In this document: piece after piece, positions 8,960 through 15,750 of the stretch
How the letters are laid out: each line of letters starts with the position of its first letter
Position numbering within the stretch: position 1 is the stretch's first letter
From: a virus
Lineage: Duplodnaviria; Caudoviricetes
DNA length: 53,608 nucleotides
Reading direction: 5' to 3' (one strand)
Virus record (IMG/VR): IMGVR_UViG_3300025646_000055
Coordinates: 1-53,608 of that record
Notes under the pieces: model-generated
The model's database searches: none
Told to the model about the DNA's origin: nothing
What the model saw: the letters and a program-made list of their open reading frames with translations, nothing else
Made by a program: the position numbers and the translations under genes

Positions 8960-8961
8960 AT

Positions 8962-9055
8962 TCTTAAACTGATGGAGCCCGAAAGGGAACGTAGAAGCGG
9001 TAGGATAAATTTGCAAAGAGGCCTACAACGTTTGCAACTCAAATTTGGTTTAAGA
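8962..9055 (+). ncRNA. unassigned structured RNA with probable pseudoknot
   Basis: Closing TCTTAAACT/GGTTTAAGA; CCC-GAAA-GGG; GTAGG/CCTAC pairs into the loop of the TTGCAAA/TTTGCAA hairpin. Confidence 0.5.
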
Positions 9056-9259
9056 CTTCTAAAAGTTACTTGTAACGATAGAAACCCGCGAGATGAGTTC
9101 ATCTCTCCTAACTCTCACTTAATTGTGATTAAAACACGCGAGATAATGGTTAGGATTTCAGAACTCCGTTACATTTAACCAGGCTAGACTGATTAACTGC
9201 AGTAAAGGTTTAGAATGATGCCCTCGGATGCTGCCGCACCTATGGGTAGTTTTAGAAGT
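9055..9259 (+). ncRNA. unassigned ~205-nt multibranch RNA
   Basis: ACTTCTAAAA/TTTTAGAAGT closing helix; TGTAACG/CGTTACA; TCCTAACT/GGTTAGGA. Confidence 0.5.
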
Positions 9260-9268
9260 AAAATATAT

Positions 9269-9344
9269 TGCGATGGCGGTACAGAGACGTTCTCATGAGA
9301 CGTATTGGGTAGCTCCCCTCCGAGGTTCGATTCCTCAATCGCAA
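9269..9344 (+). tRNA. aberrant tRNA(CAT): reduced D arm, long variable arm
   Basis: TGCGAT/ATCGCA; ACGTT-CTCATGA-GACGT; GAGG-TTCGATT-CCTC. Confidence 0.55.
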
Positions 9345-9374
9345 CAAATCTTGCAAGACTAGGTTGATAACCTT

Positions 9375-9444
9375 GTATAAGTCGTCTAAATATGTAGGAC
9401 ACCGGCGGGGTCGGAGATTTGGGTTCGAGTCCCATTCTTATACA
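9375..9444 (+). ncRNA. tRNA-like RNA with collapsed anticodon loop
   Basis: GTATAAG/CTTATAC; D and T arms present; CCGGC-GGG-GTCGG. Confidence 0.6.
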
Positions 9445-9458
9445 AAACAATCAAATTT

Positions 9459-9831: not shown

Positions 9832-9919
9832 AGTCAGGTGGCGTAATTGGTAACGTAGGTGGTTCAATTCCACAATACCCATGGTTAGAGTGTTACAGGT
9901 TCGAATCCTGTCCTGACTA
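9832..9919 (+). ncRNA. AGTCAGG family copy 3 (possible Leu-CAA)
   Basis: Same acceptor and T arm; GTGG-TTCAATT-CCAC gives a CAA anticodon in a 4-bp stem. Confidence 0.7.
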
Positions 9920-9999
9920 CCTAGCCTTTGTTTGGGGCAAGCGCTCGTACACGTTGCGGGCAAGTCAATACTAAACACACACAGCTGGGAAGACAGCGG

Positions 10000-10108
10000 A
10001 GTCAGGTGGTGGAATTGGCAGACACAAACCCTTTAAGGCGCCAGGGGTTGTAACAGATGAGTTCTCATCCAATAGTGCAGATTACAGGTTCGAATCCTGT
10101 CCTGACTA
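10000..10108 (+). ncRNA. AGTCAGG family copy 4
   Basis: Same acceptor and T arm; enlarged anticodon and variable arms. Confidence 0.75.
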
Positions 10109-10280: not shown

Positions 10281-10377
10281 AGTCAGGTGGCGGAATTGGT
10301 AGACGCTTTTAGGGATTAACTCACCAGAGGGTTGTATCTGTTATGGATACGTACAGGTTCAAATCCTGTCCTGACTA
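10281..10377 (+). ncRNA. AGTCAGG family copy 5
   Basis: Same acceptor, D and T arms; irregular anticodon arm; GTATC/GATAC variable arm. Confidence 0.75.
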
Positions 10378-10381
10378 CAAT

Positions 10382-10456: not shown

Positions 10457-10467
10457 CAATTTATTCA

Positions 10468-10537
10468 ACCTTTAGTCGAAGTGGCTTAAGACAATCGGCG
10501 GGAGCCGATAAAACATGGGTTCGAATCCCATAAGGTA
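10468..10537 (+). ncRNA. tRNA-like RNA with a GNRA tetraloop in place of the anticodon loop
   Basis: ATCGGC-GGGA-GCCGAT; ATGGG-TTCGAAT-CCCAT; short acceptor ACCTT/AAGGT. Confidence 0.6.
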
Positions 10538-10607
10538 AAAAGCACAACCTGTTTCCGGTTAATGTGAAATAGAATAAAGGTAAAACAACCAGAGTCGACG
10601 CTGGTTG

Positions 10608-10706
10608 GACCGAGTGGTGAAATTGGTAAACACAAAGGGTGCAGAGCCCTTGGAAGTGGAATGACGTCTGAAGCTTCTGTTGTAGGTTCGAGTCCTACCT
10701 TGGTCA
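10608..10706 (+). tRNA. atypical tRNA-Leu(CAG): G33, very long variable arm
   Basis: GACCGAG/CTTGGTC; AAGGG-TGCAGAG-CCCTT. Confidence 0.6.
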
Positions 10707-10796: not shown

Positions 10797-10845
10797 CAAA
10801 TCTTAGGAGTAATTAACCTAAGACTGACAGGTTCGAAACTGTCGA

Positions 10846-10942
10846 TTGATAGTAGTGTAGTGGGCACACTGCTCCCGGGGCGCTCGGTAAAATGAGGCTG
10901 TCCAGGAGCGGGGGTAAAGAGGTTCGAATCCTCCCATATCAA
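10846..10942 (+). ncRNA. tRNA-like RNA with ~45-nt extended anticodon arm
   Basis: TTGATA/TATCAA; GTGT/ACAC D stem; GCTCC...GGAGC long arm; GAGG-TTCGAAT-CCTC. Confidence 0.55.
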
Positions 10943-11110
10943 CTAAGGCTTTAGTCTATCCGAGACGCTAGTAAGGTTGGAGGATAAAGGTGGACGGCAA
11001 TCCACACACTTTTGAATTTGATACACTAGAAGTAGACTCGCCTCTTTGCCGAGAGGTGTTAAAAAATGGTTTCGTGGGCGAGTTTCCATCACAAAAAGCC
11101 GGCCCACCAT

Positions 11111-11184: not shown

Positions 11185-11188
11185 CAAA

Positions 11189-11292
11189 GTTCTATTTGGT
11201 GTAATTAGGCAACACTTCGGTTCGAATCCGAATGCTTTATACAATAAAGTAACAGAGAGGTTGGATGTGGGTTCGAGTCCCACAATAGAACG
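11189..11292 (+). tRNA. atypical tRNA-Ser(CGA)-like with oversized variable region
   Basis: GTTCTATT/AATAGAAC; TTCGG-TTCGAAT-CCGAA. Confidence 0.55.
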
Positions 11293-11297
11293 AGTTT

Positions 11298-11528: not shown

Positions 11529-11530
11529 CA

Positions 11531-11612
11531 AATACTTTTGGAAAAGTTGGCACTAGCACCACAGTTGCAAATGTAGGACTAGGTGTAGGTTCGAATCCTA
11601 CTATGAAGTGTT
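11531..11612 (+). pseudogene. degenerate tRNA-like remnant
   Basis: Intact T arm GTAGG-TTCGAAT-CCTAC; poor acceptor and D arms. Confidence 0.4.
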
Positions 11613-11672
11613 TACCACCGAGATGCTGCCGAGCTGAGGAGGTGGTTAAGAAATATCCCTAAATACGGACCA

Positions 11673-11746
11673 CGGTGTGTGGCCAAGATGGTTAAGGCAC
11701 CTCGCTGATAACGAGGAAATCGGAGGTTCAAATCCTCCCTCACCGA
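11673..11746 (+). tRNA. tRNA-Ile(GAT)
   Basis: Cloverleaf, loop CTGATAA. Confidence 0.9.
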
Positions 11747-11779
11747 CTCGTGTAAGAGCACTGTGCTCTAACATAACCT

Positions 11780-11853
11780 GGCGAGGTAGCTCAGTTGGTT
11801 AGAGCGTTGGAGTCATAACCCAAAGGTCATAGGTTCGATTCCTATTCTCGCTA
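11780..11853 (+). tRNA. tRNA-Met(CAT), elongator type
   Basis: GGCGAGG/TCTCGCT; loop GTCATAA. Confidence 0.85.
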
Positions 11854-11865
11854 CAAATAACTTTC

Positions 11866-12045
11866 CGCGACATGGAGAAGTGGGCAAGTTTTGATTTAAG
11901 TAATCAGAGTACTTTGGTTTCTTAAGAAAGGATTAGATTTTAAATGGTGGTGGAGTACTACACCTAATGGAAGTTACTAATCTTAGAAACGTATCTCGCC
12001 GGGGGCATGACCCGGAGATCGTAGGTTCGAATCCTACTGTCGCAA
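11866..12045 (+). tRNA. initiator-type tRNA-fMet(CAT) with ~108-nt D-loop insertion
   Basis: C1:A72 mismatch; CCGGG/CCCGG anticodon stem; loop GGCATGA; D stem GAGA/TCTC split by insert ~11884-11991. Confidence 0.75.
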
Positions 12046-12047
12046 CT

Positions 12048-12264
12048 AAAAGAACAACCTATCGCTCTACGGAGAGGAAACTCAGGACGGCACTGCTTAA
12101 GGTAGGAGATTCAAATTATAGGACCTGGATGTTGCCTATAATCCCTGAATCTCTTATACTACCGAGGCCGCAACACAAAACAGTCTATAAGGGTGAGCAG
12201 CTTGGATAAGGTAGTGGCAACAAGGTAAATGATAGGATAAACAGAATCCTGGTTATGTTCTTTT
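12048..12264 (+). ncRNA. rnpB: compact RNase P RNA-like gene
   Basis: P1 AAAAGAACA/TGTTCTTTT; P2 CCTATC/GATAGG; CR-I GAGGAAACTCAGGA; CR-V ACAGAATCCTGGTTA; CR-II/III-like GCAACACAAAAC and GGGTGAG. Confidence 0.8.
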
Positions 12265-12270
12265 AAATAT

Positions 12271-12346
12271 GGTGTCTGTAGTGTTAGTGGAATAAGCACG
12301 TCAGTTTGTGGTTCTGATAGGATGAGTTCGAATCTCATCAGACACA
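12271..12346 (+). tRNA. tRNA-His(GTG), G-1 encoded, A73
   Basis: Cloverleaf, loop TTGTGGT. Confidence 0.88.
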
Positions 12347-12351
12347 CTAAG

Positions 12352-12471
12352 AAGAGGCAGTTCAAGCTGTAGTTGAGAGGTAGAGTGTATTAATGTCTGA
12401 AAAAGGGTTTATAGTAGGATGGCGTCACTCATTGCACTCAACCAGAAACCCTGCAACACACGGAGCCTCTT
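12352..12471 (+). ncRNA. unassigned pseudoknotted RNA
   Basis: AAGAGGC/GCCTCTT closing helix; interleaved GTTGAG/CTCAAC and AGGGTTT/AAACCCT. Confidence 0.5.
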
Positions 12472-12480
12472 TTTTTTTAT

Positions 12481-12551
12481 GGTTCTTTGACCGAGTGGTT
12501 AGGTGAAGGTCTGCAAAACCTTTTACATTGGTTCGAATCCAATAAGAACCT
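12481..12551 (+). tRNA. tRNA-Cys(GCA)
   Basis: Cloverleaf, loop CTGCAAA, U73. Confidence 0.93.
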
Positions 12552-12664: not shown

Positions 12665-13120
12665 ATGAAAATATTTAAACGAGTTAACGGACAAAAGGTT
12701 ACGGATATTGTTGAATATACAATTGATATTATCCGTAAAGACCCATATGTAGAAATACATATAGGAACAGATTCTCAAAGTGAAGGTGAATGGACAACTT
12801 ATGTTACAGCTATTGCATATAGATTTGGTACAAGAGGTGTTCATTATATTTACCACAAAGAACGAGTTCCAAGAATACGTGATAGATACACTAAACTATT
12901 TAAAGAAGCTGAATTAACAATTGAATTAGCTGAATGGTTTACTAAGCGTGTTAAGAGTGTAAGAATAGAATTAGATTTTGATTACAATAAAGATGAAAGA
13001 TATTGGTCTCAAAAATTAATTAGTTCTACAGTAGGTTGGGCACAGGCTTTAGGATACAAAGTTAATGTGAAACCAGTTAAACAAATTGCTACAAGAGCAG
13101 CAGATTATCATTGTAGATAA
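12665..13120 (+). CDS. RNase H-like YkuK/DUF458-family protein
   Basis: IHIGTDSQ...L.KEAELT...IELDFD...KP...ATRAAD. Confidence 0.8.
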   Translation: MKIFKRVNGQKVTDIVEYTIDIIRKDPYVEIHIGTDSQSEGEWTTYVTAIAYRFGTRGVHYIYHKERVPRIRDRYTKLFKEAELTIELAEWFTKRVKSVRIELDFDYNKDERYWSQKLISSTVGWAQALGYKVNVKPVKQIATRAADYHCR

Positions 13121-14804: not shown

Positions 14805-15750
14805 TTAGGGTTGCTTGAAATCCTTTCAGATTATTATTGACGCGTAACAGTCCGGCTGACGATTATGTAATAGTTTGATAAAGAGTAATGAGCCGTAAGG
14901 CTACGAAAGGGGATAGTCTCACACTACCTCGCTTGGCAACAAGTTCATTCAAGCAAGCAACGTTCTAAGCTCTACCTAAGAGCGCTGTCGGACCAACCGG
15001 CAGATAAGGAGAAAGTTAGTGGAATAAGTCCCTTAGGAAAGGATAAAACCAGAGCCGATCGGTGAGGTTAAAATGGGTAGCTCCATGCTTATCCATGCTA
15101 AACTAACAAAACCTGAACAGAATAAGTTGTAGAATATGAGTTTGAGTCTCGCTAAGACAAAGGCAAGTATTCATTATAAGAGGTGAAAGGGTAATATATA
15201 TAACTCCCGGAGTAATCTTGAAGTAAGGCACAGTAGGATTAGCAGTCCGAAACGCAGTTGGCGTGTCATATTTTGTAGCTCAAAAGGTTATGAAGTGACT
15301 GTTGGGGCACGTCAAAGTGAGTTAAATAACTTGTAAGTTAGCTCAGTTGGTAGAGCATCTGTCTCTTAAACAGAATGTCGAAGGTTCAACTCCTTCACTT
15401 ACTATATGAATAATATAGAATAAAAAACGCAAAGCCCCCAACGATAGTGAAAAACAAATCACCTAATTCCGTACTCAAAAGAGAATACGGAGCTTTCAAA
15501 ACTCGCAAGGTAGAGAAAGTTTGATTGGATTTCGCACCTAATTTCTTAGCGGAAATGAATGGCTCGCAAGGTCAGGGGAAGAAAAAAAATCGAGTAGTTT
15601 CACTATGACATGAGAAATGCCACTCATTAAAAAAGGCGGTGATGTTGCTAGACTTCCTTGGTGGGAGTGGATAAGTTTTTAACAAGTAGGTTTGCCCCTA
15701 TTTGGTACGAAAATGAAGGTAGTAATATATAACGTATAATCTCAGCGTTT
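14805..15750 (+). ncRNA. large (~950 nt) structured ncRNA, GOLLD-like; ends approximate
   Basis: No ORF in the track; higher GC than flanks; many GNRA hairpins; CCACTC/GAGTGG long-range pair; ends TAATCTCAGCG + T-run; adjacent to a tRNA array. Confidence 0.7.
15332..15404 (+). tRNA. tRNA-Lys(CTT) nested in the large ncRNA
   Basis: TCTGT-CTCTTAA-ACAGA; canonical D and T arms. Confidence 0.88.

Follow-up and report, generated by a model that had tools for sequence, protein, structure and literature searches.

A family of phage-borne initiator-type tRNA genes with a helical insert in the D-loop and an invariant, non-canonical anticodon loop

To our knowledge, the D-loop of all known cytoplasmic transfer RNAs (tRNAs) comprises about 7-11 bases, because this loop builds the elbow that is read by RNase P, RNase Z, the CCA enzyme, and the ribosome. 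Here, we describe the gene of an initiator-type tRNA whose D-loop carries an insert of 108 nucleotides (nt). The gene is located at positions 11866-12045 on the plus strand of the IMG/VR virus record IMGVR_UViG_3300025646_000055. The whole record, which comprises 53,608 bases and is rated as ~33% complete, is referred to as the window, and W designates the window copy of the gene. As judged from the sequences of W and three homologues, the gene is a conserved, accessory, and phage-borne derivative of an initiator tRNA gene and combines a lineage-variable helical domain in the D-loop with an invariant, non-canonical anticodon loop.

Several described systems resemble this expanded tRNA in part. 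It shares with bacterial and phage tRNA-fMet the 1:72 mismatch, G2:C71, C3:G70, A73, A11:U24, three G-C pairs in the anticodon stem, the anticodon CAU, a 5-nt variable loop, and a standard T arm. Its D-loop, however, comprises 85-117 nt in the various family members instead of 7-9, its anticodon loop is GGCAUGA instead of CUCAUAA and lacks U33, and its score is too low for a call by any tRNA detector used. The T4 species 1 and 2 RNAs and YrlA are likewise small stable RNAs embedded in tRNA operons; their ends or their elbow are those of a tRNA, and tRNA-processing enzymes release them. Unlike the expanded tRNA, they have no full anticodon arm or initiator identity, and the Rfam model of YrlA gave only a chance-level match on the neighbouring tRNAs (E 0.21). 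The intervening sequences of bacterial 23S ribosomal RNA (rRNA) are excised by RNase III without religation. The likeness to them is one of form only: an extended hairpin of ~100 nt in the loop of a stable RNA, which is strain-variable, present or absent, and fast-evolving. They are not known outside rRNA, and excision from the expanded tRNA is hypothetical. Archaeal non-canonical tRNA introns, which are usually 15-40 nt long, correspond to the insert in being helical intervening sequences at a fixed site outside the anticodon whose sequence varies between relatives. In contrast, the insert (75-110 nt) occurs in a bacterial-type phage, no conserved bulge-helix-bulge (BHB) motif is present, and no splicing endonuclease or ligase was found. 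Finally, the nuclease-evading phage tRNAs (PMC10264068) are also encoded in large arrays and have changed anticodon-flanking loop positions combined with a preserved anticodon; unlike the expanded tRNA, they are of normal shape, and that report describes no extra arm. It states that phages mostly avoid encoding tRNA-fMet (PMC10264068). Full-text searches of the literature (subscription journals and supplements lay outside the scope) brought up no D-loop-expanded bacterial or phage tRNA; the 8/4 and 9/3 tRNAs of PMC5389517 are not D-loop inserts.

A complete initiator-type cloverleaf could be read directly from the plus strand at 11866-12045 (180 nt, CCA not encoded). This confirmed the initiator hallmarks and the 108-nt D-loop insert after GG that had been noted in a preliminary description of the locus. 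The 5' strand of the acceptor stem, CGCGACA (11866-11872), begins with C1, which is unpaired opposite A72; the 3' strand is TGTCGCA (12038-12044) and is followed by the discriminator base A (12045). The D stem consists of GAGA (11875-11878) and TCTC (11994-11997), with A11 pairing to U24. The D-loop starts with AGTGG (11879-11883; A14, G15, and G18G19) and ends with TA (11992-11993; A21), which is AA in all three homologues. In between, after G18G19 and before A21, the insert occupies the variable beta region (11884-11991). In W, the insert is flanked by the very letters that form the 7-nt D-loop (AGTGGTA) of canonical initiators from related phage loci (L041, L042, and L074; L-numbers designate phage or metagenome loci). 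The anticodon arm (11999-12015) is composed of the stem CCGGG/CCCGG (11999-12003/12011-12015) and the loop GGCATGA (12004-12010) with CAT at 12006-12008, and the T arm (12021-12037) reads GTAGG TTCGAAT CCTAC. Further tRNA features of W are U8, G26, the 5-nt variable loop AGAUC, G2:C71, C3:G70, and A73. In both lineages, the insert is surrounded by all bases required for the L-shape (U8, A14, G15, G18G19, A21, and C48). Three positions of the anticodon loop, namely 32, 33, and 37, are abnormal in being a G: the loop is GGCAUGA, compared to CTCATAA in canonical phage initiators. This abnormality was missing from the preliminary description. The minimum free energy (MFE) of the 180-mer is -51.7 kcal/mol (z = -2.6 versus 200 shuffles, none of which was equally low), and the full cloverleaf is formed at -50.3 kcal/mol once the acceptor and D stems are enforced in folding.

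By means of a pattern that combined the odd anticodon arm and the T loop, three homologous loci were found in JGI metagenome contigs. L078 (L078:564-745) and L080 (L080:48-229, minus strand) contain a 182-nt version, which is ~90% alike to W. The order of tRNA genes is Ile, Met, expanded tRNA, His, and Cys, with the same upstream tRNA(CAU) and 12-nt spacer as in the window. The third homologue (L079:596-745) is a strongly diverged version of 150 nt from an 88-kb contig, of which 1,434 bases were seen. Its stems are AGCAACG/CGTTGCC (acceptor), CUGGG/CCCAG (anticodon), and GCUGG/CCAGC (T). Its insert of ~75 nt cannot be aligned with the others and is found at the same site, after AGUCUGG and before AA-UCUC. 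On either side of this homologue lies a CAU tRNA with a long variable arm (86-90 nt), at 498-584 and 828-917; the downstream one has TxT at 1:72 and a GAGA/TCTC D stem and is initiator-like, albeit without the three G-C pairs.

In the alignment of the four sequences, all 20 Watson-Crick or GU pairs of the cloverleaf are formed in every sequence. Both sides have changed in five pairs, namely 4:69 and 7:66 of the acceptor stem, 28:42 of the anticodon stem (C-G to U-A in L079), and 50:64 and 51:63 of the T arm, where the changes are also found in L079. Position 1:72 is unpaired in all four sequences, being CxA in W, L078, and L080 and AxC in L079; despite this swap, 2:71 and 3:70 remain G-C and C-G in L079. 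The observed covariation score was reached by two of 500 column shuffles, and pairing dropped from 95% to 36-39% when the 3' partners were slid by 1-3 columns. Invariant in all four sequences are G2:C71, C3:G70, the D stem including A11:U24, the three G-C pairs 29-31:39-41, CAU, the GGCAUGA loop, the T loop, and A73. Between W and L078 or L080, at most three of 73 core positions of the expanded tRNA differ (1/19 and 0-2/54), compared to 12 of 74 in the neighbouring ordinary tRNA(CAU) of W and L078. The insert accumulated 12-15 substitutions in 108 nt plus insertions and deletions, and all three differences between L078 and L080 lie inside it. Purifying selection acts on the cloverleaf in both of the diverged lineages.

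Neither ARAGORN nor Rfam, at gathering scores or at E<=10, called a tRNA at 11866-12045, and no call was obtained for any of the four family members by RF00005 or ARAGORN. The intron option of ARAGORN identified the right ends and mislabelled the gene as Ser(aga) with an 84-nt intron. In practical terms, genes of this kind therefore escape the standard tRNA finders. Full cloverleaves with a D-loop of 15-220 nt were sought in a strict structural scan, which covered both strands of 1,177,453 bases, i.e. the window plus 79 loci of phage or metagenome tRNA arrays (L001 and L081-L105 excluded). Four matches were obtained, which are W and the three homologues, and none in reversed and complemented controls; the four D-loops comprise 85-117 nt, and all four anticodon loops are GGCATGA. 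Since the scan returned just these members, the expanded D-loop, the initiator identity, and the GGCAUGA loop travel together.

Additional copies were sought in several collections. Matches in GenBank phages (blastn) were limited to the neighbouring tRNA-Met or the 3' half of the gene, and exact 23-mer and 17-mer scans of IMG/VR as well as the family pattern in IMG/VR gave no match. Among 185,579 species genomes, the pattern produced 13 matches, which were all GC-rich, apparently coding, and without a tRNA fold, and were rejected; no cellular or prophage copy was found in this pattern scan. As far as seen, the family is phage-borne. Related phages were sought via the array open reading frame (ORF) at 12665-13120, which yielded six and then 76 IMG/VR loci. 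A blastn search of the insert and of the downstream RNase P-like RNA against 77 related loci gave no match. Among the 999 ARAGORN tRNAs of 77 loci, a regular-expression screen detected four canonical, insert-free initiators (L041, L042, L066, and L074). A relaxed pattern, which allowed any base at 32 and 33 and required G37, detected 12 normal-length phage initiators with loops of the type NNCATGA containing T33 or C33. These stem from 12 IMG/VR loci (L094-L105), some of which are identical; their loops are CTCATGA, TTCATGA, or CCCATGA, and G37 replaces A37. Consequently, G37 is not unique to the family, whereas G32 and G33 in combination with the insert are.

For the insert, a fold of three helical elements is proposed on the basis of W, L078, and L080. 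The closing helix pairs GTTTT (11888-11892) with GAAAC (11986-11990); 13 of 15 cells are paired, and the strands contain one more T and one more A, respectively, in L078 and L080. A 12-bp hairpin (TTAAG.AATCAGA / TTTGGTT.CTTAA, 11896-11925), which is part of the MFE fold, is paired in 36/36 cells; three of its pairs vary on one side only (GU/AU/GC), and a 1x1 internal loop turns into a pair. The long bent hairpin (11929-11984) consists of 13 bp, internal loops, and a 7-bp tip with the loop AGTA; 38/39 and 19/21 cells are paired, and the tip (~11949-11964) is identical in the three sequences. Overall, 106 of 111 cells are paired, and the one-sided changes preserve pairing. For the insert of L079, folding gives a single long and irregular hairpin. 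The arm is separated from GG by 1-3 bases in both lineages and is followed by two bases plus A21. Although its evolution is faster than that of the core, the insert stays helical. In these respects and in its fixed site, it resembles a peripheral arm or an intervening sequence.

The four inverted repeats that had been reported for the insert are all present; the homologues favour a partly different fold. GATTAG/CTAATC and GGTG/CACC lie within the supported long hairpin 11929-11984, whereas GTTTCT/AGAAAC loses two of its six pairs in both homologues, and the TTTTGATT/AATCAGAG helix competes with the 12-bp hairpin 11896-11925. Over W, L078, and L080, the earlier helix set reaches 66 of 72 paired cells; three sequences do not suffice to distinguish the sets statistically. 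The insert has no second copy in the window, and no mobile-element origin is indicated. Several other ideas about the insert and the loop were rejected. A tmRNA-like mini-ORF of seven codons (ATG..TAA, 11944-11967) loses start and stop in L078 and L080; ARAGORN finds no transfer-messenger RNA (tmRNA), and the anticodon arm is intact. A kissing interaction is conceivable in L079, where the apical loop CAUG complements the CAUG of the anticodon loop; W has no equivalent, and the case was treated as chance. An extended pairing between the 7-nt loop and the surroundings of the start codon (UCAUGCC) found no support either: among 48 starts, -1 C occurs once and +4 C three times, and TCATGCC does not occur in the window.

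The preliminary description had also suggested to look for BHB motifs and for RtcB or splicing endonuclease genes. A scan for 3-4-3 BHB motifs found none that is conserved at the insert junctions of the four sequences. Loose BHB motifs occur 7-16 times anywhere in an AU-rich sequence of ~180 nt. The candidate at the junctions is loose in L078 and L080, where it is one of 12-16 motifs per sequence, a number at chance level; it has one mismatch in W, is absent from L079, and would break the D stem. No RtcB, Rnl, or EndA/splicing endonuclease was detected among 48 ORFs (PHROGs) or 43 ORFs (Pfam) of the contig, which represents ~33% of the genome. In Rfam at E<=10, no group I or II intron or ribozyme family of the region 11700-12500 matched over 11866-12045; with 75-108 nt, the insert is shorter than group I and II cores. 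A joint across 11884-11991 was not found in the contigs of four public sequencing runs (X9, X11, X18, and X19), which are contigs and hence weak evidence.

The upstream neighbour of the expanded tRNA gene is a tRNA(CAU) at 11780-11853 (+, ARAGORN); in all homologues, the gene is likewise preceded by a CAU tRNA and a 12-nt spacer. The end of this tRNA, the spacer, and the expanded tRNA gene form a presence/absence unit of 192 nt (11853-12044, +), because a DNA contig of X9 joins 11852 to 12045. This contig (depth 38.4) matches the window over 74 letters before or after the joint and over 349 letters at its opposite side, with one difference, and runs through the RNase P-like RNA. The junction therefore indicates a near-identical strain without exactly the 192-nt unit, with the joint at the two discriminator bases. 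The expanded tRNA is an accessory cassette. A second X9 contig (depth 5.7, 11 differences) covers 11908-12048 and has flanks unlike the window. A contig from the RNA library X19 (record 14, depth 3) covers 11934-12046 and contains the L078-type differences at 11965, 11968, 11991, and 11992 as well as one added A. This contig may represent precursor RNA or contaminating DNA; such libraries are no proof of transcription. Note that uncovered parts and small word shares of the RNA runs X18 and X19 carry no expression meaning and that X11 is probably DNA.

Downstream, a minimal class-A-like RNase P RNA of 225 nt (12046-12270, +) begins directly after the discriminator base of the expanded tRNA. The match to RF00010, aligned from 12046, reaches 44 bits at a gathering score of 100 (E 2.5e-12 in an 801-base search). 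The alignment spans P1-P4 and the conserved 3' region, and the RNA lacks most of the specificity domain. The adjacency of the two genes, which the preliminary description had pointed out, is real in the window and is no trait of the family, since L078 and L080 continue with tRNA-His. There are three layouts, namely Met, expanded tRNA, His (L078 and L080); Met, expanded tRNA, RNase P-like RNA, His (window); and Met, RNase P-like RNA, His (X9). The RNase P-like RNA accordingly lies outside the conserved layout of the family. It is absent from L078 and L080, and none was found in L008-L010 at E<=1e-3. It is located exactly between the expanded tRNA and tRNA-His, so that tRNA processing would release it, and positions 12120-12352 are covered by a contig of the RNA run X18. 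One may speculate, although this link is neither shown nor conserved, that an RNase P RNA lacking the specificity domain could do without the elbow docking that the arm may obstruct.

We tentatively put forward, as a reading that is possible and somewhat short of probable, that the extra arm is retained in a chargeable initiator-like tRNA, which acts as a nuclease-resistant substitute or decoy. The expanded tRNA would be transcribed with the tRNA array, cut at both ends like its neighbours, and supplied with CCA; the arm would stay in the mature RNA and project from the outer corner of the L. Bases 20, 20a, and 20b of tRNAs are normally solvent-exposed in known structures. Retention is favoured because the insertion site is solvent-exposed, because no splicing signal or machinery is evident, and because the insert is constantly linked with the altered loop. 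The RNA would be charged and formylated, because the elements used by methionyl-tRNA synthetase (MetRS), formyltransferase, and the 30S P site are all kept: CAU and A73 serve MetRS, the 1:72 mismatch, 2:71, and 3:70 serve formyltransferase, and the three G-C pairs serve the 30S P site. The three G-C pairs and formylation are reported features of initiator tRNA (PMC6393288). The preservation of identity elements argues that the RNA still meets initiator-specific partners. Owing to the changed positions 32, 33, and 37 and the bulky arm, host nucleases directed against initiator tRNA would cleave the RNA poorly, and the phage would gain either a resistant replacement for the initiator or a decoy by which these nucleases are titrated. 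According to PMC10264068, anticodon-loop changes of phage tRNAs are predicted to block VapC-type and other anticodon nucleases, and enteric VapC cleaves initiator tRNA. Moreover, phage tRNAs are reported to neutralise PARIS, retron, and Septu defences (PMC11464382, PMC11555353, and PMC13096335). The constant linkage of insert and altered loop suggests one selected phenotype, the most economical candidate for which would be resistance to, or titration of, host nucleases attacking initiator tRNA.

A number of points weigh against a retained arm in a functional initiator-like tRNA. Because G33 replaces the near-universal U33 of the U-turn, ribosomal decoding is doubtful. With an arm of ~100 nt beside G19, the action of RNase P, RNase Z, the CCA enzyme, or the ribosome might be impeded. 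The near-identical strain of X9 does without the gene. The only RNA-library contig that crosses the 3' junction of the insert unspliced, that of X19, continues with 68 nt of unlike sequence (next gene) and may be a precursor or contaminating DNA, not the mature form. No double compensatory change is found in the insert fold among the three alignable sequences, for which reason the fine structure of the insert is provisional. The lack of sequence conservation of the insert between the lineages would fit an intervening sequence equally well. In the preliminary description, a new small intron type or a retained extra domain had been considered; the gene has proven to be real, and the results on BHB motifs, intron and ribozyme families, and splicing genes lean to retention or to excision without splicing. 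It is distinctly doubtful that the product is a five-armed initiator tRNA that is formyl-methionylated and works on the ribosome, or with a phage factor, despite the lack of U33.

The insert may instead be removed, and we consider it rather unlikely that either version of this explanation is correct. In the first version, ligation would yield a 72-nt initiator with the 7-nt D-loop AGUGG+UA, and the insert would represent a new type of bacterial or phage tRNA intron. In the second version, a double-strand-specific RNase would excise the insert without religation, in the manner of the 23S rRNA intervening sequences, and the acceptor and D stems would keep the two remaining tRNA pieces associated; we know of no description of a two-piece tRNA in bacteria or phages. 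Precise excision of 11884-11991 would recreate the canonical D-loop AGTGGTA, and the insert is the fastest-evolving part of the gene, helical, and brings its own two ends together. Its sequence is unrelated between the lineages at a fixed site, and the same combination is reported for archaeal non-canonical introns (PMC3241643 and PMC4090602). The loose 3-4-3 BHB motif at both junctions of L078 and L080, and with one mismatch in W, could also be taken in favour of splicing; however, such motifs abound (7-16 per sequence), none is present at the junctions of L079, and the candidate breaks the D stem. The tRNAs are of the bacterial type, as indicated by the 1:72 mismatch and the class A RNase P-like neighbour; EndA, RtcB, and Rnl are missing among the 48 ORFs of the ~33% of the genome in hand; group I/II introns and small ribozymes gave no match; and the contigs of the four runs contain no joint across the insert, which is a weak argument. 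Moreover, removal leaves the constant pairing of the odd anticodon loop with the insert unexplained.

It is unlikely, in our estimation, that the gene encodes a non-translational tRNA mimic, i.e. a decoy or regulator of MetRS, formyltransferase, IF2/IF3, a host nuclease, or a defence sensor, or else a processing handle whose sole function is the release of neighbouring RNAs from the array transcript. The usual U-turn is at odds with G32 and G33, the near-identical strain lacks the gene and is viable without it, and the window contains many other non-decoding tRNA-like elements (five AGTCAGG scaffolds, the tetraloop RNA at 10465-10540, and the T-arm minihelices at 11186-11297). A bare processing handle, however, needs neither CAU, nor the three G-C pairs, nor A11:U24, nor a 1:72 mismatch that is kept through a double change. 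As a decoy, the mimic overlaps with the decoy branch of the retained-arm reading and differs only in denying aminoacylation and use. The preliminary description had named a unique, unconserved pseudogene as the case that would overturn its interpretation. Such a disrupted initiator tRNA gene, in which foreign DNA landed in the D-loop of a once-normal gene, could account for the failure of standard tRNA finders, for an insert that is unmatched elsewhere in the window and in the 77 related loci, and for a near-identical strain without the unit. It is at odds with four members that display five compensatory pair changes, no broken pair, and an invariant loop, with a core (<=3/73) that is more conserved between W and L078 than the neighbouring bona fide tRNA (12/74), and with the same insert site in a lineage whose insert cannot be aligned. 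The compensatory pairs and the conservation of the core thus exclude a pseudogene for practical purposes, and we rate this explanation as extremely improbable.

The expanded tRNA gene is part of a dense RNA-gene array on the plus strand (8.4-15.7 kb), for which ARAGORN lists 29 tRNAs. The window also contains tailed-phage genes (baseplate wedge, primase, exonuclease, and homing endonucleases), and the public runs that hold stretches of it are mostly freshwater metagenomes. The array ends with a GOLLD RNA (15258-15748, +), in which a tRNA-Lys(CUU) is embedded at 15331-15405. The closest relatives contain GOLLD at L008:14788-15271, L009:7189-7672, and L010:14788-15271, and a tmRNA (L008:12366-12763) is located in the arrays. 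Five paralogues (37-161, 412-505, 9832-9921, 10000-10108, and 10281-10378, all +; two copies in L003:7396-8079) have in common the acceptor AGTCAGG/CCTGACT, a Leu-type D arm, and a T arm; in the anticodon and variable regions, they diverge widely, often with excess length (88-125 nt). As judged from their sequences, some of them look like tRNA scaffolds bearing other structures, not decoding tRNAs. A tRNA-like gene at 10465-10540 (+), labelled 'tRNA-???' by ARAGORN, has a 4-nt loop in place of the anticodon loop. A class II tRNA at 10608-10706 (+) with the loop UGCAGAG (G33) and a variable arm of ~30 nt reaches 44.8 bits in Rfam and is not called by ARAGORN. The spacers 11186-11297, 11530-11672, 8960-9458, and 10798-11110 (+) contain isolated T-arm-like hairpins of the GGTTCGAATCC type and other structured non-tRNA stretches. 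Between tRNA-His and tRNA-Cys, a 128-nt element (12351-12478, +) is formed by a long-range closing stem followed by a T run; as an X11 contig joins 12350 to 12479, this element is also a presence/absence cassette. The ORF at 12665-13120 (+) inside the array codes for 151 amino acids and matches the Pfam family PF04308 (RNaseH_like, E 6.5e-23). It also occurs in the 76 related IMG/VR loci with 50-68% identity and represents a conserved, uncharacterised protein with a nuclease fold that is tied to phage tRNA arrays. The 48 ORF starts of the window are A/T-rich with little Shine-Dalgarno signal, and a TATTTATAAATAAA-like motif recurs upstream of several genes; the start regions hint at a host that does not rely on Shine-Dalgarno pairing.

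The family members carry a helical domain of 75-110 nt in the D-loop, and every initiator identity element is preserved in them, whereas U33 is lost. Either the tRNA fold and its partners tolerate far more than has been assumed, or bacteria or phages possess an undescribed way to remove intervening sequences from tRNAs. The finding is relevant to the current debate about the purpose of phage tRNA arrays and to the arms race with tRNA-cleaving defences, for which initiator tRNA is a known target. If the product were indeed a five-armed initiator, it would be the first tRNA known with a helical domain in the D-loop and would provide the phage with a start-tRNA channel of its own, immune to the tRNA-cleaving defences of the host.

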